Below, in pieces: positions 26,184 through 61,048 of a stretch of 64,000 nucleotides of DNA (its first letter is position 1; each line of letters opens with the position of its first letter). The position numbers were made by a program, and so were the translations under genes. Source of the DNA: Candidatus Bathyarchaeota archaeon (GTDB lineage: Archaea > Thermoproteota > Bathyarchaeia > TCS64). The notes beneath the pieces are model-generated. The model worked only from the letters and a program-made list of their open reading frames with translations. It did no database searches and was not told the origin of the DNA. The DNA is taken from assembly GCA_016783455.1 (NCBI GenBank), contig JADHWN010000007.1, positions 10,710 through 74,709 of the forward strand, in the 5' to 3' direction.

Positions 26184-26210
26184 AAGAAAAAGATGGAAGG
26201 TTCTCTGGCA

Positions 26211-26500: not shown

Positions 26501-26664
26501 CCTCTCACCTCAGGAACTAAGCTTCCACAAGACAGAACCTTGAATTTCACTGGAACCCATGAATCTATAACGTTTGAGATTACTCTTTTTCCTCTACTTT
26601 TGACCTGACTTCTTGACTCCCCACCTTTGGAGTTATTAAAATTCCTTAGCATTTTTTTAACCGC

Positions 26665-26778
26665 GAAACCCCCGCCCTTCAATGGAAAACAGAAACAACC
26701 ACGACCACAACACACCCCCTTCACACGGAGAACACAAACACCTGAAACCCTTATCACCAGCTACCGACGCGCAAAAAA
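26665..26778 (+). repeat. C/A-rich element copy S1
   Basis: 26718..26778 aligns by eye at about 80% with 58001..58072, ending in the shared 12-mer ACGCGCAAAAAA. Confidence 0.6.
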
Positions 26779-26807
26779 CCCCTATCCCCGGCCACCACTT
26801 GATGGCC

Positions 26808-26826
26808 AAAAAACCGCTATAAGCGG
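26808..26826 (-). terminator. Hairpin plus T6 just 3' of tRNA-Leu
   Basis: Minus strand reads CCGCTtatAGCGG followed by TTTTTT. Confidence 0.5.
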
Positions 26827-26839
26827 CAACAATTATAAC

Positions 26840-26927
26840 TGGTGCGGAGAGTGGGATTCGAACCCACGAACTCCTAAGAGATAGGAACCTCAATCCTACG
26901 CCTTTGACCTAGCTTGGCGACCTCCGC
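26840..26927 (-). tRNA. tRNA-Leu (anticodon GAG), long variable arm, CCA encoded
   Basis: GCGGAGG...TAGGA-TTGAGGT-TCCTA...GTGGGTTCGAATCCCAC-TCTCCGC-A-CCA folds as a class II cloverleaf. Confidence 0.9.
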
Positions 26928-27050
26928 CCAGAAACCATACACCCCCACACCGTTTTTAAGTTTGCCTCTAAGCCTCGACAGCAGTGACCACGGGAGAACT
27001 TTTAACGAGCGAGGACGACAGGAGAAACATCGAATTGAGCCGGTGATGAC

Positions 27051-30883: not shown

Positions 30884-30886
30884 ACT

Positions 30887-31768: not shown

Positions 31769-31769
31769 C

Positions 31770-31789
31770 CCTTTTTTCTTTATTTCTGT
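31770..31789 (+). terminator. Oligo-T terminator
   Basis: CCTTTTTTCTTTATTTCT immediately after the stop at 31768. Confidence 0.55.
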
Positions 31790-32032
31790 CCTATAGCCAC
31801 TCCGAGGGAGCCGTCTCCTCGTCGGTCCCGAACCTCCACCCCAAGAGGACCAGGAAGGCCGTGTAACCTATGGACATGGCCCACTTTACGAGCTCCCACT
31901 GCCAGGGTTCCAAATATATCGGGGATCAAATGGGTGCTCATCGATGAAAAGGATATCGGGAACCGAGCCAACAGTCCACCGATTTGTTCCTTCCTACACA
32001 CACCATCATTTTTACACTACGTTAACAGATAA

Positions 32033-32983
32033 TTGGATGAGGTAGACATCCCCATGGACATCGTCATTGAGACAGCCCGCAGGATAAGGGCGCTAGAGAT
32101 CCAGGGCGCCACCAACGTCGCCATCGCCGCGGTGAACGCCCTGTCCGAGCAGATACAGCTCTCCGAGGAGGTGGACCGGGGCTCCATACTCTCCCAGATA
32201 GATGAGGCCAAGGAGATCCTATTCGCCTCCAGGGAGACCGAGCCCTTCATGAGGAACGCCATAAGGTACGTCGAGTGGAGGCTCAGGACCGGGGAGTGGC
32301 GGGACAAGGAGGAGCTCAGGGGGCTGGTTCACGGCGTCTCGGAGGGCTTCCTGGAGGACTTCAGGGCCGCCACGGACGCCCTGGTCAAGGTGGGGATGAG
32401 GAGGATAAACTCGGACACCGTCGTGCTCACCCACTGCCACTCGTCCGCAGTCTCCAAGGTCTTCGTGGAGGCGAAGCGGAAGGGCGTGGACTTCAGGGCC
32501 ATCTGCACAGAGACCCGCCCCAAGTACCAGGGGAGGATCACAGCCGGGGAGCTGCTGGAGGCCGGCATCGACACGACGATGATAGTCGACTCCGCAATGA
32601 GGAACTTCCTGAAGGAGGCCGACCTCGTCCTGGTCGGGGCAGATGCCATCACCTCCGAGGGGAACGTCATCAACAAGATCGGCACCAGCCAGCTCGCTCT
32701 CGCAGCCGACGAGGCACGGGTGCCCCTCTACGTCGTCTCGACCCTCCTCAAGTTCGATCCCCAGACCATCCACGGGGAGTATGAGGTCATCGAGGAGAGG
32801 AGCCCCGACGAGATATGGCCCGACGCCCCGGATGGCCTGAAGATCAGGAACCCCGCCTTCGACGTGACCCGCCGGGAGTACATCCACGGCATCGTCTGCG
32901 AGGAGGGGGTCATCTCACCCCACTCGATCCTCGAGGCCGTGAGAAGAAGGTACCCCTGGATTATTGAGAGTATAGAGACCTAG
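32033..32983 (+). CDS. Ribose-1,5-bisphosphate isomerase (eIF-2B alpha/beta/delta-like, e2b2 family)
   Basis: 'ALEIQGATNVAIAA', 'VLTHCHS', 'VGADAITSEGNVINKIGT'. Start is TTG 32033 or ATG 32054. Confidence 0.85.
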   Translation: MDEVDIPMDIVIETARRIRALEIQGATNVAIAAVNALSEQIQLSEEVDRGSILSQIDEAKEILFASRETEPFMRNAIRYVEWRLRTGEWRDKEELRGLVHGVSEGFLEDFRAATDALVKVGMRRINSDTVVLTHCHSSAVSKVFVEAKRKGVDFRAICTETRPKYQGRITAGELLEAGIDTTMIVDSAMRNFLKEADLVLVGADAITSEGNVINKIGTSQLALAADEARVPLYVVSTLLKFDPQTIHGEYEVIEERSPDEIWPDAPDGLKIRNPAFDVTRREYIHGIVCEEGVISPHSILEAVRRRYPWIIESIET

Positions 32984-34200
32984 GACCAGGTCTCCAGGGC
33001 TCTTGCCAGTTCTTTATGATCTTGGGCGTATTCCTTGAGGGAATGGCCTCCGAGCCTCGCGTCCACGGCCTGCCTCAAGGCCATGGCGCCCGCCACAGAT
33101 CCGTCCGGGTGACCGTGGATGCCACCTCCCGCCTGGATGACGAAGTCCGTGCCGAATATCTCGATGAGATCCGGGACGTGGCCCGGGTGGAGGCCTCCCG
33201 ACGCGACGGGGAGGACCTTCTTCAGGCCGTGCATGGGTTCCTTCAGGGCCTTGATGTTCTCGTGGACCTCGTCCCTGGTCTCCGCCATCTTCCCCACCGC
33301 CGTCCCCACGTGGAGCTGGTCCACGCCGAGGATACGGGCCACCTTTGCTATCACCCTCATGTTGATGCCGTGGACAGCTGAGCGGGTGAAGGCGGCGTGG
33401 CCCGCCCTGTGGGCGTGGATGACCAACTCGAGCCCCCTGTCCCTGAGGGTCTGGAGGGCCGACCAGCCGACTGTGAGGATGTCCACCATCATGTAGCGGC
33501 CGTCCTGGTCCTGGACCATCTCAGCCCGCCTGAGCATCTCCTCGGTCTCCGCAGTGACGTTCACCATGTAGACCTTCCTCTCCCCAGTCTCCTCCTCGGC
33601 CCGGTCCCTCATCTCCAGGGTGCTGACCAGCCTATCCTCGAAGGGGTTGAACGCCTGGCTGCTCAGGTTCTCGTCGTCCTTGATGATGTCGCAGCCTCCG
33701 GACCAGGCGTCGTAGGCCACCTTGGCGTGGTCCTCGGTCCTCAGCCCCAGCTTTGGCTTGATGATAGTGCCCACCAGGGGCCTCCCCTTCAGCCTTAGGA
33801 GCTTCCTGATCCCATCGATCCCGTATCGGGGCCCCTCGAAGCTCCGCACGAGCTCCTCAGGAAACTCCATGTCGTTGAGCCTCAGGTTCCCCAAAGCCTC
33901 GAGGCCGAAGACGTTCCCGGCCACGCTGCTCAGGATGTTGGCCATGTTCCCCGGCTCGAACAGCTCGATGGGATACGCTATCCTGCAGTCGTTCCCTACG
34001 ATATCGTAGACCGTGGCGTGAAGCCTTTCGAGGTAGGGCTTGACAGTGGTTAGCTCCGTCCAGGTGCCGATTGAGCTCTCTGCGGCGACGCCCCCCATGG
34101 CCTCATCCATGGAGATCCCCTTAGGTTCCACGTGGAAGCCGCAGACGAGGTCAGAGGCCTTGGGCCGGTAGTCCAGGTCGATGAAATCGACATATCTCAT
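32980..34200 (-). CDS. rbcL: Type III ribulose-1,5-bisphosphate carboxylase/oxygenase large subunit
   Basis: 406 aa; 'GTIIKPKLGL', 'GGCDIIKDDENL', 'HAHRAGHAAF', 'QAGGGIHGHP'. Confidence 0.93.
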   Translation of the reverse strand: MRYVDFIDLDYRPKASDLVCGFHVEPKGISMDEAMGGVAAESSIGTWTELTTVKPYLERLHATVYDIVGNDCRIAYPIELFEPGNMANILSSVAGNVFGLEALGNLRLNDMEFPEELVRSFEGPRYGIDGIRKLLRLKGRPLVGTIIKPKLGLRTEDHAKVAYDAWSGGCDIIKDDENLSSQAFNPFEDRLVSTLEMRDRAEEETGERKVYMVNVTAETEEMLRRAEMVQDQDGRYMMVDILTVGWSALQTLRDRGLELVIHAHRAGHAAFTRSAVHGINMRVIAKVARILGVDQLHVGTAVGKMAETRDEVHENIKALKEPMHGLKKVLPVASGGLHPGHVPDLIEIFGTDFVIQAGGGIHGHPDGSVAGAMALRQAVDARLGGHSLKEYAQDHKELARALETWS

Positions 34201-34290
34201 ACATGAAACCCCTTTATGATAGATTCCGGATCCGTTAGTAATTTAATTTTCCGTGTATATTCCAGTATTGGCGTAGTGTGGGGTATCGAT

Positions 34291-35838
34291 ATGCAGTACA
34301 GTGTCAGGCTCCTCGACCTGGAGGCCGGTGGGAAGTACATCGTCGTGATGTGCGTAGACGACGCTAGGACCCTGGGGGTCATCTCCAACGACAGGCTGAT
34401 GCTGAACTCCAACGGGACAGCAGTCGTCGCCATCCTCAACACCTCCGAGGTGTTCCCACGGGGAGTGCTCGGGATGTACAAGGAGATCGGCGAGTACCTG
34501 GACGTTGAGGAGGGCGACCCCATCGACGTGGAGCCCGCCGAGAGGCCCGAGTCCCTCCTTCACATCAGGTCGAAGATAATGGGGGAGAAGCTGATGCCCA
34601 AGCATATCGATGCCATTGTTGAGGACGTCGTCCAGAGGCACCTGAGCAGCATAGAGCTCTCGTCCTTCGTCACGGCACTCCAGATCCACGGCACCAATAT
34701 GGAGGAGATCGAGGCCCTCTCGAGGTCCATGATAAAATGGGGGAAGACCATCGACTTCGGCAGGACCCCCATCTGCGACAAGCACAGCATAGGAGGCGTG
34801 CCCGGCGACAAGACCACAATGATCGTGGTCCCAATAATCGCTGCCGCCGGATACACGATCCCCAAGAGCTCCTCTAGGGCCATCACCTCCCCGGCGGGCA
34901 CCGCCGATAGGATGGAGGCCATCTGCCCCGTGAACCTGAGGCTGGATGAGATCATCGAGGTCGTCAACGACATCGGCGCCTGCATCGTCTGGGGCGGGGC
35001 CCTGGACCTGGCGCCAGCCGACGACCTCTTCATCCAGGTGGAGTACCCCCTCTCCATCGACCCCCTCCTCCTCCCCTCCATAATGAGCAAGAAGAAGGCC
35101 ATGGGCTCCACCCACGTCGTCGTGGACATCCCCACGGGGCGGGAGGCCAAGATTAAGACCATGGAGGAGGCCCAGCAGCTGGCCATCAACTTCATCGAGC
35201 TCGGGAACCGCCTAGAGATGAAGATACGGTGCGCCGTCACCGAGGGGGAGCAGCCCATAGGCTACTGCATAGGCCCCAGCCTAGAGGCGAGAGAGGCCCT
35301 CAAGACCCTGGCGGGCTCAGGGCCGCCGGACGTCGTGGACAAGGCCACCAGCATAGCCGGAATACTCCTGGAGATGGTGGGAGAGGAGAACGGCCAGGCT
35401 AGGGCCATGGAGATGCTTACCTCCGGCAAGGCGGAGGCGAAGATGAGGGAGATAATAGGAGCCCAGGGCGGAGACCCGGATGTCAAGCCTGAGGACCTCG
35501 CCGTAGGCGATGAGAGGCTCGACGTGCGGGCGGTGAGAGACGGGCGGGTCCTGTGGCTCAAGAACCGGTCAATAGCCCAGATAGCTAGGGCCGTGGGTAC
35601 CCCCAACACCAAATGCGCGGGTATAGAGCTGGGTGTGAAGCTGGGGGACGAGGTGAAGGAGGGAGACATCCTCTTCAGCGTCTACACCGACAGCCTGCGC
35701 AAGCTGGGCCAGGCTGAAGAGCTGTTGGAGAACATGGAGCCCATAATCGTCGGGAACCGTATAGGCGAGAAGATGATCATGATGAAGATCTCCGAGTCGA
35801 CGACCCCGGGGTCCGAGAGGTACATAATCGACAGGTGA
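34291..35838 (+). CDS. deoA: AMP phosphorylase (thymidine-phosphorylase family, DeoA-like)
   Basis: 'DKHSIGGVPGDKTT', 'SSRAITSPAGTAD', N-terminal archaeal extension. ATG at 34291 is preferred over the track start at 34216. Confidence 0.88.
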   Translation: MQYSVRLLDLEAGGKYIVVMCVDDARTLGVISNDRLMLNSNGTAVVAILNTSEVFPRGVLGMYKEIGEYLDVEEGDPIDVEPAERPESLLHIRSKIMGEKLMPKHIDAIVEDVVQRHLSSIELSSFVTALQIHGTNMEEIEALSRSMIKWGKTIDFGRTPICDKHSIGGVPGDKTTMIVVPIIAAAGYTIPKSSSRAITSPAGTADRMEAICPVNLRLDEIIEVVNDIGACIVWGGALDLAPADDLFIQVEYPLSIDPLLLPSIMSKKKAMGSTHVVVDIPTGREAKIKTMEEAQQLAINFIELGNRLEMKIRCAVTEGEQPIGYCIGPSLEAREALKTLAGSGPPDVVDKATSIAGILLEMVGEENGQARAMEMLTSGKAEAKMREIIGAQGGDPDVKPEDLAVGDERLDVRAVRDGRVLWLKNRSIAQIARAVGTPNTKCAGIELGVKLGDEVKEGDILFSVYTDSLRKLGQAEELLENMEPIIVGNRIGEKMIMMKISESTTPGSERYIIDR

Positions 35839-35891
35839 CTCTGCCCATCGCAAGTTTCATATCGTGATCAGGCCGTTCCTCGGTTATTCAG

Positions 35892-36992
35892 GTGGCGCCC
35901 TTGCTGACGATATGGCAGATTGTGGTGATAAACTTCGCCATCTTCTTCGGCCACTACGTCATAGTCGCCACGACCCTCAACTTCCAGTACGGGAACGCCG
36001 GCATCCCCAACATGAGCAACAACCTCTCGGTGGCCTGCGGGGCCTATGTCATCACCTCCATTGTTACCAGGATCTGCATGTGGCTCCTGGGGATGGCGGG
36101 GGTGGCTTTCAGGCTCAGCTGGGTCTACGATAACCCCTATAATGTCTCTTTGATCTCTGCCTTCCTGAATGATCGCCCCTTGCTAGGATTCTCCCTCTTC
36201 ATGCTCTCCCTGGCCCTAGCACTGGTCTTCGGCAACCTCCTGGGCTGGGTCCTCGCCTCGATAAGCGGGAAGATGAGGGCCTCCACGCTCATGGTCCTCC
36301 TCTACGTCGTGGCCCAAGCCGGGGACGTCATAGTGGCCAACGAGAGCTGGATAGCAGGGGGCTCACAAGGGGCCTTCATCCCCAACTTTCTCTCCTGGTA
36401 CCCAGGGGAGGACTTCCTCATCGTCGCCGTCACGACAATGCTCGTGGGGCTGCTCTGCTACTTCGTGGTGAGGGCCATACAGAACTCCCCCTTCGGAAGG
36501 CTGGCCAGGGCTGTCAGGGAGAACGAGTGGACGGTGATGAGCATGGGGAAGGACGTGGGGAGGATCAGGAGGGGGGTCATGGCGTTCAGCTCGGGGATGA
36601 TGGCTGTCACAGGGGTCCTCCTCGCCCTTTACTACCGGTTCGTGGAGTACGGGATGTTCGACCAGGTCTCGTACACAATATGGCCTTGGCTCATGATAAC
36701 TATAGGGGGCATCGGGAACAACGCCGGTTCCCTGGTCGGCGTGATAGTGTGCGTGGGCATTCTGAAGACCATCTCGACGTTCAACCTGTTCTTTGGAGGT
36801 GTAATCGCGTCTTCCGGGAAGGCCGGGCTCTTCATCACCTTCGAGGAGATGGCGCTCTCGGTGATACTCCTAGCGTTCCTGATCTACAAGCCCAACGGCC
36901 TCTTACCTGAGAAGCGTCTCCACATCCCAGGCATCGACTATAGGAGATACCTGATGGAGAATCCTTCACCCGGTGATGAACAGTCGAAGTGA
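35892..36992 (+). CDS. Branched-chain amino-acid ABC transporter permease-like (LivM-like), orphan
   Basis: Multi-TM protein with a 'RAVRENEWTVMSMGKDVGRIR' LivM-like loop. No ATPase or binding protein is adjacent. Confidence 0.65.
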   Translation: MAPLLTIWQIVVINFAIFFGHYVIVATTLNFQYGNAGIPNMSNNLSVACGAYVITSIVTRICMWLLGMAGVAFRLSWVYDNPYNVSLISAFLNDRPLLGFSLFMLSLALALVFGNLLGWVLASISGKMRASTLMVLLYVVAQAGDVIVANESWIAGGSQGAFIPNFLSWYPGEDFLIVAVTTMLVGLLCYFVVRAIQNSPFGRLARAVRENEWTVMSMGKDVGRIRRGVMAFSSGMMAVTGVLLALYYRFVEYGMFDQVSYTIWPWLMITIGGIGNNAGSLVGVIVCVGILKTISTFNLFFGGVIASSGKAGLFITFEEMALSVILLAFLIYKPNGLLPEKRLHIPGIDYRRYLMENPSPGDEQSK

Positions 36993-37040
36993 GTCACGTG
37001 GACCTCAGGAAAGTATAGAGGACCGTGGAGCACGCCTTCA

Positions 37041-38051
37041 TCATGACTGCACGACTATCGTAGCATCCGAGACCGCGTCCTGAGCCTCTCGCTTCAGCAG
37101 GTCCTTTGCCCGTCTTTCCTCCTTGATGCTGTCCTGAAGAGCCTTGAGGCCCTCCCAATGGCCATCCGCAGCCATTCTCGCCTGCTCGTGCCAGGTCGAT
37201 GGATCGGTTAAACGCGTTAGGCTGGGCTTCTCGGCCACTAGTATGTCATGTATCTCTTTGGGCTCCTTCTCGGTTAACTTCGAGAATGAGGTGATGCCCG
37301 CTGTTCTAAGCACAGAGGAGACCTTGGGGCCGATGCCGTCGATTACCGTGAGATCGTCCTGCATGCTGCGGATCTTTAATTTCTGAGAGGCCGCCTCCTG
37401 AGCGCTCTCCTCCAACTCCTTCTCAAGCTTGGCTATACCTGCCTCAGCGGCCTCCGCTCGGGTAAGGGTGTCTTGATTCTTCTTCTCGAGAGCCGCCAAG
37501 TCCTCTCTTATGAGCTCGATGGAGCTATTCCTCTCCTCAATCTCCTTCTCACGTTCCAGGATCCCTGCCTCTGCCATCTCCGCCCGAGCGTTTAATGCCT
37601 GTTTCTCCTCCTTGAGGGTGTTCAGGCCCTCCTCCAACTGCTTGAGGGAGTCATCCTTCTCCTTGATCTGTTCCCTCAGGAGGCTGATTGTCTCCTCTCG
37701 TTTGTCCAGTTGAACGTTAAGGCTGTCTCTCGTGGCACGTAGGTCCGATAGATCATGGTTGAGGCCGCTCACCGAGTCGTCTCTCTCCTTGACCTGGGCG
37801 GAGATCTGGCGGATGTTCTTATCCTTCTTGGCGACCGTCTTCTGGAGGCCCTCTATGTTGGACTCGTGTCCCAGCACCTCCTCCTTCAGGTCCTTGAGTG
37901 TCGCGTCCTTGTTCTTGAGGGAGGTCCTCAGCTTCTCGATCTTCTTCTCCCCCTCGCTCATGGTGACGCGGTAGACGAACCACATGATGAGCATCCCTAT
38001 GAACAGGTTGCTTACTAGCAGGATCAGGATCGGGGTGATGCTCATCAACAT
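37041..38051 (-). CDS. Membrane-anchored coiled-coil protein with a C-terminal helix-hairpin-helix domain
   Basis: N-terminal TM helix, long E/K/L coiled coil, 'DDLTVIDGIGPKVSSVLRTAGITSF'. Confidence 0.55.
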   Translation of the reverse strand: MLMSITPILILLVSNLFIGMLIMWFVYRVTMSEGEKKIEKLRTSLKNKDATLKDLKEEVLGHESNIEGLQKTVAKKDKNIRQISAQVKERDDSVSGLNHDLSDLRATRDSLNVQLDKREETISLLREQIKEKDDSLKQLEEGLNTLKEEKQALNARAEMAEAGILEREKEIEERNSSIELIREDLAALEKKNQDTLTRAEAAEAGIAKLEKELEESAQEAASQKLKIRSMQDDLTVIDGIGPKVSSVLRTAGITSFSKLTEKEPKEIHDILVAEKPSLTRLTDPSTWHEQARMAADGHWEGLKALQDSIKEERRAKDLLKREAQDAVSDATIVVQS

Positions 38052-38181
38052 CTCGGATTAACGCATTTGGGACGTAATTGTCATATAAGTTGTTATGAAT
38101 CGCTGAAACTTCACTGGGAAACCTACCTATACTCTTGACCGGTTGTAAGTTTCCATGAGGCGAATACGTGACATGAGAAGA

Positions 38182-38202
38182 CGTGGCGGGTCCGGAGGGA
38201 TT
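38182..38202. repeat. att-like copy of the tRNA-Lys 3' end (21 nt)
   Basis: CGTGGCGGGTCCGGAGGGATT is identical to 40369..40389. Confidence 0.85.
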
Positions 38203-38247
38203 TACGTAAAAGATTAGGCTAGATGGATTCGTAATAAACGTGTTTTT

Positions 38248-38259
38248 TCGCGCGCGCGA
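38248..38259. repeat. 12-bp palindrome TCGCGCGCGCGA
   Basis: Lies 10 nt downstream of the amidohydrolase stop. The 13-mer TCGCGCGCGCGAG recurs at 53344. Confidence 0.9.
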
Positions 38260-38269
38260 GAACTGCTGA

Positions 38270-39256
38270 TCATATGCTCATCATCTGGGCTGGGTTCTTG
38301 GATAAAATAGCCTCTTTTTCATTCTCTGTTAGGCCCTCCAAGCCGTTTATCCAGTTCACAGCATCTACTATCTCCATCGGGCAAGGGTAATCGGTCCCGA
38401 ACACAACCCTGTCTATCCCAACGGTGTCTATCAGGAAACGCAGGGTCTGTTCGCTGAAGGTGGCGCAATCATAGTAAAATTTGCCCAAGTAGCTGCTAGG
38501 AGGTTTGGATATCTTCTGATCGGCGTCCTCACCAGCAGAGTACTCAGCCATATAATTCAGCCTCGCCGCTTCCCATCCCTTATCCATCCGAGCTACCCCG
38601 AATGCCACATAGCCACCTCCGTGTAGCAGGCAGATCTTCAGCTTAGGGAAGCGATCTAGGATTCCACCCTGCACTAAGGCACCATATGTGAGGGTACGCT
38701 CTACAAGATTCCCTACAGTGTTCTCTAGGAAGTAACCCGTGATACGATGAGCTACAACTGTGTCGCCCTGATGGATCTCGACGACAGCGCCTAACCTTTC
38801 AACTGCTTCCCAAAAGGGGTAGAACATAGGCTCATCCAATGTATGACCGTTGATATGGTCCTTGATGGTAACTCCTCTTAGCCCTAAGTCGTTTACTGCC
38901 CGCTCTAGCTCCTCTATAGATGCCGTGGCATCCTGCATTGGGATGATTCCCAAGCCTATGAATCGGTCTGGGTAGTCATCAACCATAGACGCTATCTCGT
39001 CATTACATTGCCTGGCAACATTCTTTGAGTGTTCAAGGTCCCGGTTGTATTGGTTAAAGTCACCATAAACTGTTAGTAGCTGCATGTCCACCCCGAGGCG
39101 ATCCATGTCTGCGATTCGCTTTTTAAGGGTCCAACTGTTGCGGGGGTTCTCAAGCTCCCCATTATCGGATGCGAATCCAAGCCAATCTCTATTGTCTCGT
39201 ATCGCCTGCAGGAATGGGCGCGGGTTCACGTGGTTATGGACATCAATGACCTTCAT
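38270..39256 (-). CDS. Amidohydrolase-2 (ACMSD-like) family hydrolase, lower-GC islet cargo
   Basis: 'MKVIDVHNHV', 'HGGG', 'VVFGTDYP' metal-site motifs. Confidence 0.8.
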   Translation of the reverse strand: MKVIDVHNHVNPRPFLQAIRDNRDWLGFASDNGELENPRNSWTLKKRIADMDRLGVDMQLLTVYGDFNQYNRDLEHSKNVARQCNDEIASMVDDYPDRFIGLGIIPMQDATASIEELERAVNDLGLRGVTIKDHINGHTLDEPMFYPFWEAVERLGAVVEIHQGDTVVAHRITGYFLENTVGNLVERTLTYGALVQGGILDRFPKLKICLLHGGGYVAFGVARMDKGWEAARLNYMAEYSAGEDADQKISKPPSSYLGKFYYDCATFSEQTLRFLIDTVGIDRVVFGTDYPCPMEIVDAVNWINGLEGLTENEKEAILSKNPAQMMSI

Positions 39257-39354
39257 TCAATCATCCTGAGCCTTCTCTGGCTCATATTCACAGAGCCACG
39301 TGTGTATTAAATAGTAACGCGCACTTGCATAGCTTTTTCTTAACGCAAAAAAAC

Positions 39355-39364
39355 GTGCTAGCAC
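39355..39364. promoter_or_regulatory. Perfect 10-bp palindrome GTGCTAGCAC in a divergent promoter spacer
   Basis: Located between the starts at 39256 (-) and 39419 (+). Confidence 0.3.
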
Positions 39365-39418
39365 AGTTTTTGTGGCAAAAATATTTTAGTCGAGTGCAGA
39401 ATTAGACAACGACATAAT

Positions 39419-40321
39419 ATGGGTGAAAAAAGAGTGGGCGAAGACTCTGGGTACATATTCGCAGGCCCTACTGTGGAGAGGAAGAGGAAGGTTGTGAAGC
39501 CGGGTGTAATACTCATCGACAACCATAAACAGGGAGTCATCGTAACCGAAAATTCAGACAGCCCCTGGCACAAGGCAACATACTACGCGCATGGAAGCAT
39601 CCTGAGTGATGCCGAAGGCAAGTTCATCCGACAGGTGGCGTTCTGCGAGACGATAGATCCAGATGGCGACGTGACCTGGAGCATTCTATGGGAGCCAAGT
39701 GAGGGGAAAGCCAGCTATCACTTCATAGTTGGCACGGGGAAGTGGAAGGGAATCGCCGGTGAGGCGACCATCACAGGTGTGACGAGTCGCGCTGATGACC
39801 ACACGACGCCAAGCTACAAGATGAGCTGGGAGATCGATGAGAAGAATGATGAAACCATCCCGCCATTCTCACCAAAGGGCCCATACACCAACCACGCAAC
39901 AAGTCTGAGCTTCCATGGACCCCACGTTACCGAGAACATTAAGGAACTAGCCAACGGATTGAAGCTTATAATCAACACACAATTAGGTGTGCTAGTAGGA
40001 GAAGACTCCACAGTCTCAAATGTCTTAAATCCACGTGGTTACGCGGCCAGCTACGACAAGGGAGTGACCGTGTGGAGCGGTGACAAGAGGCTCGCCGATG
40101 TAATGCTGCTCGAGGATACGGACCCGGACGGCGATATGGCTTGGCTCGTCCATGTATGGTGGTACGCGAGGGGCCGTGGATTATACAAGTTCGTTGGAGG
40201 CACTGGTAAGTGGGAGGGCATCAGAGGCGAAGGAACTACCCTCGGTCAGCTTATGAAGCGAACCGATGACTATCATCTCCTCAGGTCAGAGATACACTGG
40301 AGGATAGACGACATCAGCTGA
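39419..40321 (+). CDS. Two-repeat protein of unknown function (AOC/dirigent-barrel-like 'GTGKW.GI.GE' motif twice)
   Basis: Internal duplication: 'DPDGDVTW...VGTGKWKGIAGEAT' and 'DPDGDMAW...GGTGKWEGIRGEGT'. Confidence 0.5.
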   Translation: MGEKRVGEDSGYIFAGPTVERKRKVVKPGVILIDNHKQGVIVTENSDSPWHKATYYAHGSILSDAEGKFIRQVAFCETIDPDGDVTWSILWEPSEGKASYHFIVGTGKWKGIAGEATITGVTSRADDHTTPSYKMSWEIDEKNDETIPPFSPKGPYTNHATSLSFHGPHVTENIKELANGLKLIINTQLGVLVGEDSTVSNVLNPRGYAASYDKGVTVWSGDKRLADVMLLEDTDPDGDMAWLVHVWWYARGRGLYKFVGGTGKWEGIRGEGTTLGQLMKRTDDYHLLRSEIHWRIDDIS

Positions 40322-40368
40322 GAATGGGGATCGTTTAATGTACGAACTCGGTTCTCATATTGCACGTG

Positions 40369-40389
40369 CGTGGCGGGTCCGGAGGGATT
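40369..40389. repeat. att-like 21-mer overlapping the 3' end of tRNA-Lys
   Basis: Identical to 38182..38202. Covers 2 nt of trailer, the CCA, the discriminator, the acceptor 3' strand and part of the T arm. Confidence 0.85.
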
Positions 40390-40447
40390 CGAACCCTCGG
40401 CCAATGGCTTAAGAGGCCACCGCTCTAACCTTGCTGAGCTACGGACC
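40371..40447 (-). tRNA. tRNA-Lys (anticodon CUU), CCA encoded
   Basis: GGGTCCG-TA-GCTC...CTCTTAA loop...GAGGGTTCGAATCCCTC-CGGACCC-G-CCA. Confidence 0.9.
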
Positions 40448-40553
40448 CACTCGAAACACCCATATTGCGAGACCAGATTTAAATCTTTCAGCCCTCCCGC
40501 TCCCAGGGGCTTAACCAATAAATACCTCCGACAAGATAGAAGGACGAACGAGA

Positions 40554-41294
40554 ATGGCTTTGAACGGAGCCCTTTCAGCATTATACTCATTCTTCGTCAC
40601 CAAGCTGCCTTACATCACCATCGCCGTGTTCCTCCTCGGCGTCACATACAGGCTCCAGAGGTGGCTCTCGGCCCCCAAGGGCCCCGAAGGCCCGCCCCTC
40701 CACTGGCCCTCAGCACTAAAGTACGTCGTCCTCGACGTCGTCCTCTTCAGGAAGACCTACAAGACTGACAAGCTCATGTGGCTCGTCCTCGTCCTCTTCC
40801 ACATCGGAACCGGGGGCATCCTCTTCGGCCACATGAGGGGGTTCCACCTCTGGTCGGCCTCCATGTTCGAGGTCCTCGGCCACGGCTTCGCGGAGTTCAT
40901 GGTTCACACCCTCCCCCTATACATGGGATGGATGTTCCTAGCGACCCAGATCTACCTACTCTACAGGAGGACCCGCCTTGAGGGGAAGCAGCTGCAGTCC
41001 CTGGCAAACGACTACGGGGCCCTGGTCATCCTGCTCATCACCAGCATACTGGGACAGGGGATGAGGATCTTCCCTCCAGAGGCGATCCCCACGGAGACCT
41101 ACAGCGTCGTCTTCATACCCAACCTCATAGTCCTACACCTGGAGAAGGTGCCCAGCCACCACTGGTTCTTCTGGCACGTCCTCTTCACACAGCTCCTGGT
41201 GATGTACCTCCCCTGGAGCAAGCTTGTCCACGTCGTCAGCGGCGTGGCCACCTCGGCCCTCTACGGCTCAAGGAGGAGAAAATATGACCTCTAG
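40554..41294 (+). CDS. NarI/DsrM/HdrE-like membrane cytochrome b subunit
   Basis: 246 aa, 5-6 TM helices with conserved His (FHIGTGG, HHWFFWH). Overlaps the next gene by 11 nt. Confidence 0.7.
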   Translation: MALNGALSALYSFFVTKLPYITIAVFLLGVTYRLQRWLSAPKGPEGPPLHWPSALKYVVLDVVLFRKTYKTDKLMWLVLVLFHIGTGGILFGHMRGFHLWSASMFEVLGHGFAEFMVHTLPLYMGWMFLATQIYLLYRRTRLEGKQLQSLANDYGALVILLITSILGQGMRIFPPEAIPTETYSVVFIPNLIVLHLEKVPSHHWFFWHVLFTQLLVMYLPWSKLVHVVSGVATSALYGSRRRKYDL

Positions 41295-42504
41295 GGACGC
41301 CAAGGAGGCCCTGGGCAAGTTCACCAGGCGCCAGCTCATGGAGCTGGACACATGCGCCCACTGCGCCCTCTGCACGGAGTACTGCCCCGTCTACATGGAA
41401 ACCGAGGAGCCCGGCCACGCCCCGGGAGTGAGGTCCTCCAAGGCCGTGAAGCTCTACGACAAGCAACACGGGCTGAGGGCGCGCATCCTTGGCCCCAGAC
41501 CCGTAACAGACGAGGAGGTCGAGGAGCTCTCCGACAGCGCGTTCAACTGCACCTTCTGCGGACGCTGCATGGAGGTCTGCCCCTTCGGCATCCAGACCCA
41601 CGAACTCTGGAGCAAGGTCAGGGAGGTCGTACACGACCTCGAGGGGACCCCCCGCAACGTCGGGATGCTAGAGGAGATGCTCGACGAGAGCCAGAACCCC
41701 TACGGCCTCGACCCCGACTCACGCCTCGACTGGGCGGACTTCACCGACCTCGAGGAGATACCCGAGAAGGACAAAGCCGAGGTAGCCTACTTCGTCGGGT
41801 GCACCACCGCCTTCAAGGGTGCCAACCACGAGGTGGCATTCGCCACGGCCTCCATACTCAACATGCTCGGCGAGGACTGGACCCTCCTGGGGGAGGACGA
41901 GTGGTGCTGCGGGAGCCCCCTGCTCCTCGCCGGGGACGAGCACAGCGCCAAGGAGTACGCCAAGCACAACGTCGAGGTCCTCGAGTCCAGGGGCGTCAAG
42001 AGGCTGATCACAGGCTGCTCAGGGTGCTACAGGGTGTTCAAGTGGGAGTACCCCAAGCTCCTCGGAGGCGACCTCAAGTTCGAGGTCCTCCACACCCTGG
42101 AGTACCTCCTCGAGAAGCTGGAGTCCGGAGAGCTGAAGCCCGAGAAGACCGACGAGAGGGTCATCTACCACGACCCTTGCGAGCTCTCCCGCCTTGGCGG
42201 GCTCATAGATGAGCCCAGGAAGGTCCTGGCATACCTAGCCAACGACTGGGTGGAGTTCGCCGAGCACGGAATCGACGTCAGGTGCTGCGGAGGAGGCGGT
42301 CTCCTCCAAGCCTCGAACAACGAAGCACGGCTGGCCATTGCCAAGAAGCGGCTCGACGAGGCCAAGTCCCTGGGAGCAGAGATAATCACCTCCGCCTGCC
42401 CCTCCTGCAAGCTTACCTTCGTGGACAGCGCGAGGGAACACGAGGTGGACATAGAGGTCCTGGACCTCGTCGAGCTAGTGGCGAAGCAACTGGGCATTCT
42501 ATGA
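41284..42504 (+). CDS. HdrD/DsrK-like Fe-S oxidoreductase with two CCG domains
   Basis: 'CAHCALCTEYCP', 'CTFCGRCMEVCP', 'CCGSPL', 'YHDPCEL', 'RCCGGGG', 'CPSC'. ATG at 41284. Confidence 0.85.
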   Translation: MTSRDAKEALGKFTRRQLMELDTCAHCALCTEYCPVYMETEEPGHAPGVRSSKAVKLYDKQHGLRARILGPRPVTDEEVEELSDSAFNCTFCGRCMEVCPFGIQTHELWSKVREVVHDLEGTPRNVGMLEEMLDESQNPYGLDPDSRLDWADFTDLEEIPEKDKAEVAYFVGCTTAFKGANHEVAFATASILNMLGEDWTLLGEDEWCCGSPLLLAGDEHSAKEYAKHNVEVLESRGVKRLITGCSGCYRVFKWEYPKLLGGDLKFEVLHTLEYLLEKLESGELKPEKTDERVIYHDPCELSRLGGLIDEPRKVLAYLANDWVEFAEHGIDVRCCGGGGLLQASNNEARLAIAKKRLDEAKSLGAEIITSACPSCKLTFVDSAREHEVDIEVLDLVELVAKQLGIL

Positions 42505-42508
42505 GTGT

Positions 42509-43381
42509 GTGATGATGGGAAGCGTGTATGACTACGGGGTCCTCGCGAAGCCGAAGGTTCTCCTCGCGATGCTCCTCCTCTACGCCTCCTCCTACTTCGC
42601 ATCGGTGGCATACTCAGGCGTCAACTGGGGCGTGAACACCTTCCTGGTGGGGCTGACGGCGGTGGCGATGGCCGTCAGCGGTGCCAACGCCCTCAACTGC
42701 TACCTCGACAGGGACATCGACGCCCTCATGACGAGGACACTCGGGCGCCCCCTCATCACAGGGACCATCGGACCATCTGGGGCTCTTACGTTCAGCGGCA
42801 TCCTGCTCATTGCCTCGTCAATATTAGCCCTCTCACTCGGAACCGTACCCTTCCTCCTCTTCCTGGAGGGTGCTGGGACATACCTCCTCCTGTACACGGT
42901 GCTTCTGAAGAGGAGGACGAGCCTCAACGTCCTCGCGACCGCCCCGAGCGTCGCAGCCCCCGCCTGGTTCGGTTGGTACCTGGGAGGGGCCCAGCTCTAC
43001 CCCGTCGGGCTGCTGATGGGAGTCCTGGTGGCGATCTGGGGGCCCATCCACCTCTGGAGCCTCGTTTATGCCTACTCGAAGGACTACTCCAGGGCGGGGG
43101 TGCCCATGTTCCCCTCAGTTGCCTCTAACGAGAACGCCGTGAGGGGCATCATCGCCGCCCTTGCCGTGCTGATCGCCTCCTCCTACACCTTGGTCCCGTG
43201 GACGAGGACCCTCTTCTACCCCCTTGTCGTCACCCTCATCAACGCCCCCCTGGCGGTAGCGGGCTACAGGTTCTACAGATCGAGGACCAACAAGGCTGGA
43301 TGGTGGATCTTCAAGCTCACGGCCCCCCAGATAGTCGTCGTCCTCCTCGCCTTCATGGCGGAGAGGCTGCTCTTCGCCTAG
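42509..43381 (+). CDS. ctaB: UbiA-family prenyltransferase, heme O synthase-like
   Basis: The 'NCYLDRDIDALMTRTLGRPL' motif is typical of CyoE/CtaB. Confidence 0.7.
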   Translation: MMMGSVYDYGVLAKPKVLLAMLLLYASSYFASVAYSGVNWGVNTFLVGLTAVAMAVSGANALNCYLDRDIDALMTRTLGRPLITGTIGPSGALTFSGILLIASSILALSLGTVPFLLFLEGAGTYLLLYTVLLKRRTSLNVLATAPSVAAPAWFGWYLGGAQLYPVGLLMGVLVAIWGPIHLWSLVYAYSKDYSRAGVPMFPSVASNENAVRGIIAALAVLIASSYTLVPWTRTLFYPLVVTLINAPLAVAGYRFYRSRTNKAGWWIFKLTAPQIVVVLLAFMAERLLFA

Positions 43382-43442
43382 GCGTCAGGGTAATAGTCTT
43401 TTATTTCCCGATACTTGTTAAGATAATACTGGATGGATTAGC

Positions 43443-43871
43443 ATGGTTAGAATCGAGGGAAACGACTTCCCTGAGGACCTGTACTACCACAGGGATCACA
43501 TGTGGGTGAAGGTGGAGGGGGACAAGGTCCGGGTCGGTTACAACGACTGGGCACAGGAGGCGGCGGGGAAGCTCCTGAACCTTAATACCAAGAAGGCGGG
43601 GAGGTCCGTAAAGTCGGGGAAGACCTTGGGCACAGTGGAGAGCGGCAAGTGGGTCGGCCCCCTAAAGTCTCCTGTCTCAGGGGAGATCGTTGAGGTCAAC
43701 GAGGAGGCCCGTAAGGAGCCCTCAATCATCAACGACGACCCCTACGGGAACGGCTGGGTCGCGGTCATCACCCCGTCCGACCTCGACGCCGAGCTAGGGG
43801 GGCTAATCAAGGGTTCCGATGGCGCTGAGATAGAGTCCTGGCTGGCCTCGGAGAAAGCCAAACACACATAA
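43443..43871 (+). CDS. GcvH-like lipoyl-carrier protein with a non-canonical lipoyl-Lys context
   Basis: 'HMWVKVEG', 'TVESGKWVGPLKSPVSGEIVEVNE', 'DPYGNGWVAVI'. Confidence 0.8.
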   Translation: MVRIEGNDFPEDLYYHRDHMWVKVEGDKVRVGYNDWAQEAAGKLLNLNTKKAGRSVKSGKTLGTVESGKWVGPLKSPVSGEIVEVNEEARKEPSIINDDPYGNGWVAVITPSDLDAELGGLIKGSDGAEIESWLASEKAKHT

Positions 43872-43900
43872 ACACCCATCCTCTTTTTAGCAGAACAACC

Positions 43901-44992
43901 ATGGAACGCTGGAGGCTTCTCAACCTAGGATACTCCGAGCCCCTGGTGGCCCAAACATTCTACGAGACCGTGGCGGAGGCCGTCCACAGGGGGATCTCAC
44001 CTAACACCCTCATCCTCCTGCAGCCTGACAGCCCGTACGCCTGCCTCGGCTACCACCAGGACCTGGAGAAGGAGCTGGACCTGAGGTTCTGCGAGGGGGC
44101 GGGCCTGCCCATCATAAGGAGGAGCCAGGGGGGAGGCGCGACGTATCTGGACCGGGGCCAGGTCTTCTACCAGATCGTCTCCAAGGGGAGCGAGATCGTC
44201 CCCAGGAATATCGATGCGATGTTCGAGAGGTTACTCTCGGTGACCGTTGAGACCTACAGGAGACTCGGCGTGCCCGCGGAGTTTAAGCCCCTCAACGACG
44301 TCGTGGTGGAGGGAAGGAAGATCTCCGGGAACGGGGCGGGGATGCACGAGTCAGCATCCATCCTCGTAGGGAACGTGATCCTGGACCTCAACTACGACCT
44401 CATGGCCCGGGTGCTCAGGGTCCCCGACGAGAAGTTCAGGGACAAGATGGCCAGCAGCATGAGGGAGTGGGTGTCCACATTGAAGCGGGAGCTGGGCGAG
44501 GCGCCCCCCGTCGAGAAGGTCCACTACACCTACGCCGCTGCCTTCGAGGAGCTCCTCGGCGTCGAGCTCCACAGGGAGGAGCCCTCCGAGGAGGAGTGGA
44601 GGATCTTCGAGGAGGAAACCAAGCCACGACACACCTCCCGGGAGTGGCTCTACATGGAGGCGCCCCCGTCCCAGCTCAGGGAGGGGAGGGGCGTGAAGAT
44701 CGCCCACGACGTGAAGGTCGTCGAGGCCGACCACAAGGCAGCCAAGCTCATCCGGATAAGGGCCGAGGTGAAGGGGGACGAGATCCTCAGCGCCCAGGTG
44801 AGAGGGGACTTCTTCGCCCTGCCCAAGGAGGCCGTCTTCAGGCTCGAGGAGGCTCTCACGGGCGTGAACCTTGACGAGTCAGCCATCTCCGATGTCGTCA
44901 ACAGGTTCTACGACGAGACGGATGTCCAGATACCCGGAATCAGCCCGGGGGACTTCACGACTGCCATAATGAAGGTCAAGGACCTACTGTAG
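43901..44992 (+). CDS. lplA: Lipoate--protein ligase A
   Basis: 'RRSQGGGATYLD', 'GRKISGNGA' (lipoyl-AMP lysine region), plus a C-terminal accessory domain. Confidence 0.8.
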   Translation: MERWRLLNLGYSEPLVAQTFYETVAEAVHRGISPNTLILLQPDSPYACLGYHQDLEKELDLRFCEGAGLPIIRRSQGGGATYLDRGQVFYQIVSKGSEIVPRNIDAMFERLLSVTVETYRRLGVPAEFKPLNDVVVEGRKISGNGAGMHESASILVGNVILDLNYDLMARVLRVPDEKFRDKMASSMREWVSTLKRELGEAPPVEKVHYTYAAAFEELLGVELHREEPSEEEWRIFEEETKPRHTSREWLYMEAPPSQLREGRGVKIAHDVKVVEADHKAAKLIRIRAEVKGDEILSAQVRGDFFALPKEAVFRLEEALTGVNLDESAISDVVNRFYDETDVQIPGISPGDFTTAIMKVKDLL

Positions 44993-45102
44993 ACCCGCGA
45001 CCTTCCCCTTATTTTTCATTGACCATGCCTGTTTTCAATGGGTAACAAGTCTTGCTCAAAATGGTTAAAAAGAACTGGTGTCTCTGACTGGTTACAATCC
45101 AG

Positions 45103-46653
45103 GTGTCCAATTTGAGTGAAAACCAGTTCTACCTCAGCCAGTACAAACCCGGGGGGGAGAGGTTCCTCCCCGAGAAGGTCTGGATATTCGACACGACCCT
45201 CCGTGACGGCGAGCAGATGCCCGGCGTCACCTACACGATAGACGAGAAGGTCCTCATCGCCCAGCAGCTCGACGAGCTACGTGTCCCCAGGATCGAGGCG
45301 GGGTTCCCCATAACCTCGCCTGGGGAGACCGAGGCGGTGAAGAGGATCGCGGCTCTGGGCCTCGATGCCCAGGTGGTCGCCCTCTCCAGGCCCCTCAAGG
45401 AGGACGTCGACAGGGCCCTAGAGTGCGACGTGCCCTACATCCACATATTCATCTCCACGAGCGACCTCCACATCGAGACCATGATGAAGACCACCCGGGA
45501 GGACGTCCTCAGGTCCGCGGTCGAGGGGATAGAGTACGCTAAGGAGCACGGGGTCTTCGTCGAGTTCAGCCCCCAGGACGCAACCCGCACGGACATGGGC
45601 TACCTCGTCGAGATCTGCAAGGCCGCCGAGGACGCCGGGGCCGAGATGCTCAACATCCCGGACACCGTCGGGGTCATGACCCCTCGGATGACCTTCGACT
45701 TCTTCAAGGAGCTGAAGGCCCAGACCAGGGTCCCCCTGAGCGCCCACGCCCACAACGACCTGGGCCAGGCCACGGCCAACACCCTCGCCTCCATCGAGGC
45801 GGGAGCCGAGCAGGCCCACGTCTGCATCAACGGCCTGGGCGAGCGGGCAGGGAACACGTCCCTGGAGGAGGTGGTGGTCTGCCTGGCGGCCCAGTACGAG
45901 GTCGAGACGGGCATCAACACCAAGAAGATAGCTGAGACCAGCTCACTGGTGGAGAGGCTCAGCGGGGTCTACATGCCCCCGAGCACTCCAATAATTGGGG
46001 ACAACGCCTTTGCCCACGAGGCCGGCATCCATGTCCACGGGCTCCTCAGCCACTCTGGGAACTACGAGATACTCCGCCCCGAGTTCGTGGGGAAGAGGAG
46101 CCGGATAGTCGCGGGGAAGCACGCCGGCAGGCACGGTATCTCCAGCATGCTGGATGACCTGGGTCTGGAGCCCACCCGGGAGCAGTTGAAGGCGGTAGCC
46201 GCAGAGGTGAAGAAGCTCGGCGACACCGGGAAGGTGGTCTCCGACTCTGATCTGTACGCCATCGCCAAGAACGTCATGGACATAACCGCCGACGACAGGG
46301 TGAAGCTTAAGCAGCTTCTGGTGGTCACCGGGAACACCATCACGCCCACCGCCTCGGCGACCCTCCTGGTCGACGGTGTCGAGTACAAGGGCTCTGGGGT
46401 GGGGAACGGACCCATCGACTCGGCCATCAACGCCATCAGGAACGTCGTCAACGGCTTCGCCAACATAACCTTAGAGAAGTTCTCGATGAAGGCCATCACG
46501 GGAGGTACCGACGCCGTCGCCGACGTCACCGTCGCCGTCCGGAGGGGCGAGAAGATGGTGACGGCCAACAGCGTCAACGGCGACACGGTTATGGCGAGCG
46601 TCGAGGCCATCCTGAAGGGCATGAACAGGCTCCTCGTGGAAAGCAACAAGTAG
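45103..46653 (+). CDS. LeuA/CimA-family synthase 1 (2-isopropylmalate or citramalate synthase)
   Basis: 'FDTTLRDGEQMPGV', 'HAHNDLGQATANTL', C-terminal LeuA-dimer regulatory domain. GTG start. Confidence 0.88.
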   Translation: MSNLSENQFYLSQYKPGGERFLPEKVWIFDTTLRDGEQMPGVTYTIDEKVLIAQQLDELRVPRIEAGFPITSPGETEAVKRIAALGLDAQVVALSRPLKEDVDRALECDVPYIHIFISTSDLHIETMMKTTREDVLRSAVEGIEYAKEHGVFVEFSPQDATRTDMGYLVEICKAAEDAGAEMLNIPDTVGVMTPRMTFDFFKELKAQTRVPLSAHAHNDLGQATANTLASIEAGAEQAHVCINGLGERAGNTSLEEVVVCLAAQYEVETGINTKKIAETSSLVERLSGVYMPPSTPIIGDNAFAHEAGIHVHGLLSHSGNYEILRPEFVGKRSRIVAGKHAGRHGISSMLDDLGLEPTREQLKAVAAEVKKLGDTGKVVSDSDLYAIAKNVMDITADDRVKLKQLLVVTGNTITPTASATLLVDGVEYKGSGVGNGPIDSAINAIRNVVNGFANITLEKFSMKAITGGTDAVADVTVAVRRGEKMVTANSVNGDTVMASVEAILKGMNRLLVESNK

Positions 46654-46778
46654 GCCAAGGAAAGAAGCCTATTTTTCCCTCTTTTCATCAAACGATTTGT
46701 ATTCATGTATAGCTGGAGGCTACGGCGATATCCTTATATGACGAGTTTTCTAGCCTATATTCTACCAATCGAAGGAAT

Positions 46779-61047: not shown

Positions 61048-61048
61048 G

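Follow-up and report, generated by a model that had tools for sequence, protein, structure and literature searches.

A 2.2-kb islet of foreign DNA lies at the 3' end of a tRNA-Lys(CUU) gene in a Candidatus Bathyarchaeota archaeon (assembly GCA_016783455.1). It was analyzed within a stretch of 64,000 nt from contig JADHWN010000007.1, which is referred to as the window. The islet is enclosed by two copies of a 21-nt direct repeat, carries two cargo genes and encodes no integrase. Judged by alignment with a relative that has the uninterrupted locus, it is a precise site-specific insertion, and genes for tyrosine recombinases adjoin the same attachment (att) sequence in related genomes. We favor, with moderate confidence, the reading that the islet is the fixed remnant of a larger element, which was inserted by an integrase of this family and then lost its integration module. 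Coordinates of all features are collected in Table 1. Related contigs and loci are designated by numbers with the prefix L.

The 21-mer CGTGGCGGGTCCGGAGGGATT occurs exactly twice in the window, at either end of an interval of 2166 nt. The count stays at two when up to three mismatches are allowed (0.01 matches expected by chance in 64 kb), and none of 100 shuffled versions of the window contained two or more matches. The right copy consists of the last 19 nt of tRNA-Lys, including the encoded CCA, and 2 nt of trailer. Its tRNA part comprises the end of the T-loop, the T-stem, the acceptor stem, the discriminator base and the CCA. The tRNA gene, encoded on the minus strand, is called by ARAGORN and matches Rfam family RF00005 with 72.5 bits; no other Rfam family was found in the islet. 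Insertion restored the 3' end of the target tRNA, which has therefore stayed intact. The original prediction, which had been made from the letters of the window alone, had described both repeat copies and the overlap with the tRNA in the same way. It had named a frequent occurrence of the 21-mer apart from tRNA-Lys as a counterargument, and this is not seen in the window.

The empty site is present in L108 (Ga0209536_100002994), a metagenomic contig of 27 kb found by scanning metagenome contigs with the tRNA body. L108 has the gene order of the window on both sides of the tRNA (RuBisCO, AMP phosphorylase, permease and coiled-coil protein on one side; NarI-like, HdrD-like, UbiA, GcvH and LplA on the other). 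Positions 30047-38202 of the window align to L108 2-8139 (88% identity) and positions 40369-47211 to L108 8119-14959 (90% identity). In L108, the alignments share exactly the 21 nt of the core, so that this contig is devoid of precisely the islet and one core copy. This therefore indicates conservative site-specific recombination at the tRNA 3' end. The attL/attR interpretation of the original prediction is upheld by this empty site, found in a relative as had been proposed there, and by the tyrosine recombinase genes next to the same att sequence in relatives. No empty site was returned when metagenome contigs were scanned for exact matches to the trailer of the window itself (GAGAAGAC...); the trailer of L108 differs by one base.

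Independent assemblies agree over the islet and its two junctions without a single difference (100% identity); they comprise two ENA contigs (84 and 100 kb), Logan contigs of several runs and an NCBI contig of a metagenome-assembled genome (MAG). A JGI contig that carries the islet is 99.5% identical. Misassembly, a concern raised in the original prediction, is ruled out by this identity across both junctions in several assemblies from different assemblers. In one sample, the region is split over three contigs with equal coverage (18.6x, 21.3x and 21.0x), and there is therefore no sign of an islet-free sub-population. In the contig collections from samples with this strain, no polymorphism, empty site or copy-number difference was seen. 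A circular excision junction (attP-type), also suggested as a check, was not found in viral contigs or in the other contig collections searched. The islet appears to be fixed in the sampled population. One contig (L004; GCA_014384355.1, JACNGA010000133.1, 1-418) equals the window up to position 40330 and then, in place of the tRNA, runs into GC-rich coding DNA of unrelated sequence; it was treated as a probable chimera.

The composition of the islet is foreign to its host. Its G+C content is 0.50 versus 0.60-0.61 in both flanks, and the G+C content at third codon positions (GC3) is 0.56 and 0.62 in the cargo genes versus 0.76-0.89 in 11 neighboring genes. The low G+C content had been pointed out before, as had the divergent orientation of the two genes and the (CG)5 run, all of which are found as described.

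Table 1. Features of the tRNA-Lys(CUU) locus and its islet (positions in the window).
Feature	Position	Strand	Evidence
attL, distal 21-nt copy without tRNA body	38182..38202	-	exact match to 40369-40389; left homology breakpoint versus L108
attR core, T-loop-to-CCA end of tRNA-Lys plus 2 nt of trailer	40369..40389	-	right homology breakpoint versus L108
tRNA-Lys(CUU), integration target, intact	40371..40448	-	ARAGORN; Rfam RF00005, 72.5 bits; identical tRNA beside NarI/HdrD/UbiA/GcvH genes in relatives
Inserted islet, 2166 bp, foreign composition	38203..40368	.	absent from L108; G+C 0.50; 100% identical across independent assemblies
Left-end spacer of islet	38203..38248	.	first ~17 nt weakly similar to integrase-proximal end of same-att elements in relatives
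(CG)5 tract	38249..38258	.	left limit of the block with homology to cargo copies from other genomes
Cargo gene 1, ACMSD-family amidohydrolase/decarboxylase, 328 aa	38270..39256	-	PF04909; PDB 4igm; GC3 0.56
Divergent intergenic region with both cargo promoters	39257..39418	.	module junction ~39323-39354; upstream region conserved in all homologues
Cargo gene 2, tandem double beta-barrel, 300 aa	39419..40321	+	AlphaFold, Foldseek; no family match
Conserved 3' tail of cargo gene 2, ends ...GGTTCTCATATTGCACGTG	40322..40368	+	downstream-region alignment; recurrent homology breakpoint elsewhere
Original chromosomal spacer between coiled-coil gene and tRNA (former tRNA 3' trailer region)	38052..38181	.	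collinear with L108 up to the core, with L001 up to 38170
Left flank, coiled-coil/DUF4332 membrane protein	37041..38051	-	orthologues 81% identical in L001, 72% in L108
Right flank, NarI/HdrE-like gene, then HdrD-like, UbiA, GcvH, LplA	40554..41294 (NarI/HdrE-like)	+	synteny with tRNA-Lys conserved

The closest relative in the genome collection is Ca. Bathyarchaeota MAG CSMAG_1250 (L001), the flanks of which are 92% identical to the window. It has an att copy with one mismatch at the place of attL, and an intact ORF of 503 aa starts 65 nt further on; the contig ends 2.8 kb into this integrase-bearing element. Homologues of the 503-aa protein (45-53% identity) are encoded next to intact tRNA-Lys(CUU) genes in L088, L110 and L112, where they are read away from the tRNA. 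Closer homologues (72-84%) are found beside att copies in L132 and L133. In all six cases, the intact gene lies 60-70 nt from the same core. L132, a contig of 7.9 kb (SDBT01033134.1), also codes for a second integrase, which is of the PF00589 type (3676-4806).

Judged by their conserved residues and predicted fold, the proteins of this family (460-500 aa) are tyrosine recombinases. R168, K213, Y299-x-x-R302, H329 and Y337 are invariant. The AlphaFold model (predicted local distance difference test score, pLDDT, of 78) retrieved tyrosine recombinases as all of its top 37 PDB matches, nearly all with a probability of 0.8-1.0, among them archaeal XerA, IntI, Brujita Int, Tn1549 Int, Cre and lambda Int; the matches to XerA, IntI, Cre and lambda Int have a probability of 1.0. 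The family matches PHROG_1 ("integrase") with E-values from 1e-7 to 5e-9 and Pfam PF00589 weakly; a PDB sequence search with the family profile was uninformative. At least 405 relatives are present in databases, several of them labelled "site-specific integrase [Candidatus Bathyarchaeota]", and none was found in viral contigs. Gene adjacency thus points to the existence of a cognate integrase for this att site.

The window itself was searched with a hidden Markov model (HMM) built from 120 homologues of the integrase family and with a PF00589-type query. These were applied to 612 six-frame segments of at least 50 aa, which cover the whole window. No integrase or integrase fragment was detected at an E-value cutoff of 0.1 (best E-value 0.15), nor was one found in the window by tblastn (E-values of at least 2.5) or by comparison to Pfam, PHROG and NCBIfam. 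The original prediction was thus correct in stating that the islet has neither an integrase nor split-integrase fragments. As it encodes no recombinase, it is unable to move by itself. The islet shares with tRNA-integrated islands the repeat of the target tRNA 3' end, the empty site, the intact tRNA and the foreign composition, and differs from them in having no integrase of its own. With cis-mobilizable elements (CIMEs), it has in common that its att sites are those of an integrase-bearing family in relatives and that it contains no genes for recombination or transfer.

Three other element classes were considered and rejected. An SSV-type partitioned element would have int(N) and int(C) fragments at its borders. 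No such fragments of at least 50 aa were found there, the borders being noncoding or occupied by cargo; moreover, the related integrase genes are whole when integrated, which therefore speaks against SSV-type partitioning. For an integron cassette array, attC sites were assessed by the pattern RYYYAAC...GTTRRRY instead of a dedicated attC model. No such pair at a distance of 45-150 nt occurs in 38150-40450, and the window has no integrase. A transposon or casposon does not fit either, given that the islet ends have no inverted match of at least 8 nt and that no transposase or Cas1 is encoded. Hairpins at the islet ends are not significant (z = +1.5 and -1.0, the latter for the tail at 40322-40368).

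The product of the first cargo gene is an ACMSD-like amidohydrolase, as had been proposed (PF04909, E = 4.1e-44; human ACMSD, PDB 4igm, E = 2.5e-48). The product of the second cargo gene has no match in Pfam, NCBIfam or PHROG. Its AlphaFold model (pLDDT 92.3) consists of two eight-stranded barrels, and each half matches dirigent, allene oxide cyclase (AOC), Diels-Alderase and DUF3224 barrels with a Foldseek probability of 1.0, in agreement with its initial description as a two-repeat barrel-like protein. This all-beta double barrel rules out that the gene codes for a hidden recombinase. The cargo pair probably acts on aromatic acids, the amidohydrolase being the probable decarboxylase and the barrel protein its probable partner.

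The islet was acquired horizontally and is of foreign origin. The 300-aa barrel protein has 193 database relatives, which form a continuous series from 95% identity down to ~45% in bacteria. About 20 loci with copies of the cargo genes were retrieved, none of them at tRNA-Lys. The closest copies (L113/L114 and L119; 91-92% nucleotide identity) are on Bathyarchaeia contigs with ~50% G+C. In L113/L114, the cargo block has the composition of its surroundings (L113: block 0.51, rest 0.50 G+C), while L119 is too short to judge. The match in L113/L114 points to a lower-G+C Bathyarchaeia lineage as the putative donor.

The region 3' of tRNA-Lys is variable. Contigs that code for a NarI-like protein 94-97% identical to that of the window have differing DNA at this place. 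L104 and L106 have unrelated small ORFs, and L108 is empty. L111 has an end like that of the integrase-bearing element in L110, with no integrase in the 950 nt available. In L103 (Ga0209991_10031146, 111-594), an att copy with one mismatch, TGGCGGGTCCGGAGGTATT, lies 465 nt from tRNA-Lys and the 446 bp enclosed contain no genes. The chromosomal left flanks of L103 and L133 are identical, and in L133 this att copy is followed by an integrase-bearing element. The tRNA-Lys 3' flank is thus an insertion hot spot, at which integrase-bearing and integrase-less inserts alternate among close relatives. In L010, from a strain with 99.5% identity, the right end of the islet adjoins an att copy of 20 nt, beyond which the DNA is not that of a tRNA; this suggests that a further element entered between the islet and the tRNA. 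In L132 (1-180), a right end of the L106 type is joined, via a core with two mismatches, to a left end of the L001 type with its integrase. This is a candidate for the attP of a circular form or for a tandem junction. Either of the two junctions could also be a chimeric join across the shared core.

The following history would account for the islet. A tyrosine-recombinase integrase would have inserted incoming DNA into the 3' end of tRNA-Lys(CUU). The att site on this DNA would have recombined with the T-loop-to-CCA segment of the tRNA, with duplication of the 21-bp core. The outcome would have been an intact tRNA (attR) and an orphan core copy at a distance of 2.2 kb (attL). The enzyme responsible would belong to the Bathyarchaeia integrase family of 460-500 aa, members of which are encoded beside the same att sequence in relatives. 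The larger, integrase-bearing element would then have lost its integration module, and the remnant would have been fixed in the species as a two-gene metabolic cargo. That this family made the insertion, and that an integrase was once present and then lost, is our inference. Decay is supported by the left ends: those that are clearly related to each other (L001, L132 and L133) are each followed by an integrase, and ~17 nt of this end are found in the window (38162-38219 aligns to L001 2876-2819 with 85% identity by blastn, similarity beyond the core being weak). It is also supported by the seemingly fixed state of the islet and by the literature, in which integrase loss is the accepted origin of integrase-less integrated elements in archaea (PMC8371274).

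Several observations weigh against this history. The likeness of the left end amounts to ~11/17 nt, and no similarity was detected between the right end of the islet and the right ends of integrase-bearing elements. No integrase pseudogene or fragment is left in the islet, and both att copies are perfect (21/21). At least 15 other loci with cargo copies have no integrase of the family nearby (up to 8 kb fetched on each side), and a larger element that joins these cargo genes with an integrase was not found. Finally, the 446-bp insert of L103 and a possible insert at tRNA-Ser in L125 (see below) may indicate a systematic class of cargo-only elements instead of random decay.

The original prediction had left the choice between a decayed element and a cargo-only element mobilized in trans. 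These are the right two options, the first being the better supported and the second a less likely alternative. According to the second, the islet never was autonomous. It would be an archaeal counterpart of CIMEs with functional attL and attR, mobilized by an integrase supplied in trans, for example, from a tandem element at the same tRNA. The perfect att copies and the lack of integrase remnants are as expected for such an element, the integrase-bearing elements of L001 and L133 use the same attL, and the insert of L103 between two att copies is even devoid of genes. Tandem occupation of the tRNA-Lys site is suggested by L010, and the junction in L132 would be an attP or a tandem junction, but both could be chimeric. 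In Dehalococcoides, ssrA islands without integration modules have been read in this way (PMC3146451). Against this reading, samples with this strain have shown no empty site, circular junction or copy-number difference. No integrase of the same genome is known within the 64 kb at hand, and the right end of the islet shares no sequence with integrase-bearing elements.

The cargo consists of two modules of ~1 kb (38258-39322 and 39355-40369), the limits of which were derived from L121 and L134. Homology to L119, L122 and L134 begins at 38258. The modules occur in several arrangements. They are divergent, as in the window, in L113, L119, L122 and L135. They are in tandem in L121 and, in the opposite order and directly after a tRNA-Met, in L120. 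In L134, they are convergent with their order swapped; they are 94% and 87% identical to the window and therefore have different histories. The barrel module occurs by itself in L115-118 and L123-127. Its right end, ...GGTTCTCATATTGC, also written ...CATATTGC(ACGYGC), marks the point at which homology breaks off in four or more unrelated contexts. A T-arm-like sequence, GGGGTTCGAACCCCAC, beside the cargo block of L122 was examined as a possible att remnant of tRNA-Leu. This was rejected, since a distal att site would contain a different part of the tRNA and the sequence corresponds to the generic T-arm consensus.

Tracts of alternating CG are found at most module junctions. The window has six loci with (CG)n runs of n ≥ 4, while 0.6 are expected (~10-fold enrichment), and five of the six are beside genes with low GC3. 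Such runs are common in lower-G+C Bathyarchaeia contigs (all but two of ~50 counted are intergenic) and absent from the high-G+C relative L108. They may simply be an intergenic motif of the donor lineage, carried along with foreign DNA. Nothing was found, be it a structure, an attC-like site or an enzyme, that ties the tracts to recombination.

We consider it possible, although unlikely, that the islet belongs to a class of cargo-only, att-bounded mini-elements of Bathyarchaeia. These would be moved in trans between tRNA hot spots by resident tyrosine integrases and would be assembled from ~1-kb single-gene modules, shuffled in order and orientation at alternating-CG junctions. Their sites would be tRNA-Lys here and possibly tRNA-Ser and tRNA-Met elsewhere, and such promoter-carrying modules would be distinct from integrons. 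As to tRNA-Ser, 12-13 nt of the tRNA-Ser(CGA) 3' end are repeated 1.2, 12 and 3.6 kb downstream of this tRNA in L125 (4548-5882), L126 (783-12860) and L127 (2354-6008), respectively. The 1.2-kb interval of L125 contains only the gene for the 300-aa barrel protein, and TTTTGCGCGCGCAAAA is found 29 nt after tRNA-Ser. L125 may thus carry an integrase-less, att-bounded insert with this gene.

Even less likely, in our opinion, is that the att-bounded interval is an older scaffold, into which the cargo came later as two single-gene modules that arrived independently and recombined at short alternating-CG tracts, in a process separate from the tRNA integrase. In favor of such an exchange are the occurrence of the modules as divergent, convergent (with swapped order) and two kinds of tandem pairs, their unequal identities in L134, the recurrent breakpoint at the right end, the CG tracts at most junctions, and the enrichment of such tracts in the window, where most adjoin low-GC3 genes. 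The tracts are, however, a common intergenic feature of lower-G+C Bathyarchaeia and may just have come along with the foreign DNA. The conservation of ~60 nt upstream and ~45 nt downstream is expected from promoter and terminator alone, and neither attC-like R''/R' cores nor terminal inverted repeats nor a recombinase linked to the tracts were found. We regard it as highly improbable that the repeat is a chance match, an assembly artefact or a target-site duplication left by an enzyme of the transposase or casposase type. Such readings could appeal to other assemblies, in which some contigs end at tRNA-Lys or close to it. Against them stand a match far beyond chance expectation, the identical sequence across both junctions in several assemblies from different assemblers, the exact empty site in L108, the lack of terminal inverted repeats, transposase and Cas1, and the tyrosine recombinases that flank this core in relatives.

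Some additional observations were made at tRNA-Lys and at related RNA genes. In L001, a 15-nt direct repeat of the tRNA-Lys trailer region, GAAGTGAATGCGTGC (2868-2882 and 4527-4541), flanks an insert of 1.65 kb that codes for a nitroreductase and a methyltransferase. This insert lies 11 nt outside the att copy and does not code for a recombinase. Runs of (CG)n are found on both sides of the methyltransferase gene. Contig CALIUM010000006.1 (L068/L088) has an integrase beside an intact tRNA-Lys(CUU) (L088, 3640-3716). At a distance of ~75 kb, it has an inverted, partial copy of this tRNA (47 nt; L068, 7247-7293), which was not used as an element boundary; it could result from an integrase-mediated inversion or from a problem with the contig. 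In a genome scan with the 18-mer TGGCGGGTCCGGAGGGAT, most matches in Bathyarchaeia proved to be the 3' end of tRNA-Arg or of a longer RNA gene without an ARAGORN call rather than att remnants of tRNA-Lys. This longer conserved RNA gene, which probably has a long arm or an intron, ends in the 18-mer in L019, L023-L027, L036, L044, L047, L049, L055-L057, L067, L072, L079, L080, L084 and L094. In L047, it is adjoined by an integrase homologue with 36% identity. Orphan copies of the 18-mer that are followed by T-arm-like hairpins occur in L020, L028, L069, L071 and L077.

Other regions of the window also deviate in composition. A low-GC3 ORF (7410-7991) that codes for a HpcH/HpaI aldolase-like fragment of 193 aa lies between the copies of a 61-nt direct repeat (7296-7356 and 8334-8394; 82% identity at a distance of 1038 nt). 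Runs of (CG)4 at 7366 and 8291 adjoin the repeat copies. This region (7296-8394) may be another small inserted unit. The gene for a PheRS alpha-subunit-like protein (5757-7271, minus strand; PF01409, E = 4e-76) has a GC3 of 0.59 versus 0.8-0.9 in the genome and lies in a patch with 35-48% G+C (6000-9000). It looks as if this core translation gene had been replaced horizontally. Low GC3 is also found for an asparaginase_2 gene (55557-56501) and a gene for a PNPOx-like protein (56663-57139). The two are located in the region 55503-57139, at the start of a lower-G+C stretch (55000-64000), and (CG)4 runs at 55503 and 56547 lie on either side of the asparaginase gene. A further patch with a G+C content of 0.46-0.47 (25500-27000) adjoins tRNA-Leu(GAG) (26840-26927), and part of it (25757-26123) is present in L001 with 87% identity. 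No repeat of the tRNA-Leu(GAG) 3' end was detected with the probe used.

The original prediction had called integrase-less elements of this kind not well described in archaea, which is only partly correct. Integrase-less integrated elements have been reported from archaea and ascribed to integrase loss (PMC8371274). Well-described bacterial cases are the CIMEs, which have been reviewed together with att-site accretion (PMC5704250), and the ssrA islands of Dehalococcoides, some of which have no integration module but have neighbors or relatives with one (PMC3146451). Archaeal elements that target tRNAs by means of non-partitioned tyrosine integrases (PMC8371274; for Thaumarchaeota, PMC6563490) resemble the islet in their insertion at the tRNA 3' end with regeneration of the tRNA, the repeat at the far border, foreign composition, re-use of the site by tandem or successive elements and, in part, the lack of an integrase. 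The islet differs from these elements in its size (2.2 kb with two genes), in its Bathyarchaeia host, in the uncharacterized integrase family and in having no remnant of replication, regulatory or integrase genes; the smallest cryptic thaumarchaeal element (2.6 kb) still encodes an integrase (PMC6563490). The ssrA islands of Dehalococcoides have similarly a repeat of ~20 bp from the 3' end of a small-RNA gene, low-G+C cargo and a hypervariable region downstream of the target gene (PMC3146451). Their host is, however, not archaeal and they use the serine recombinase DsiB rather than a tyrosine recombinase; mobilization in trans and tandem accretion are hypothetical for the genome analyzed here.

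SSV-type (class I) integrases and the gene capture attributed to them (PMC7253208) also involve an archaeal tRNA target and captured genes flanked by att repeats. SSV elements split their own int gene into int(N) and int(C) at the borders, whereas none of this is seen at the islet and the related integrases are intact. Small, often single-gene foreign modules in varying arrays and orders are reminiscent of integron cassettes. Unlike integrons, there is no IntI/attI platform and no attC; the modules have their own promoters and occur in both orientations, and the whole insert is bounded by tRNA-derived att repeats.

An integrase-less tRNA islet is conceptually familiar and represents a fairly ordinary route of gene uptake in such genomes. 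The locus provides, for uncultured Bathyarchaeia, an example of metabolic gene acquisition that is documented with nucleotide precision for the occupied and the empty site. It defines a 21-bp att core in tRNA-Lys(CUU), a candidate cognate integrase family and an insertion hot spot. If the islet can be mobilized in trans, the bacterial concept of CIMEs and accretion would extend to archaea. If it belongs to a class of mini-elements, this would be a tRNA-anchored, promoter-carrying cassette system that is distinct from integrons.

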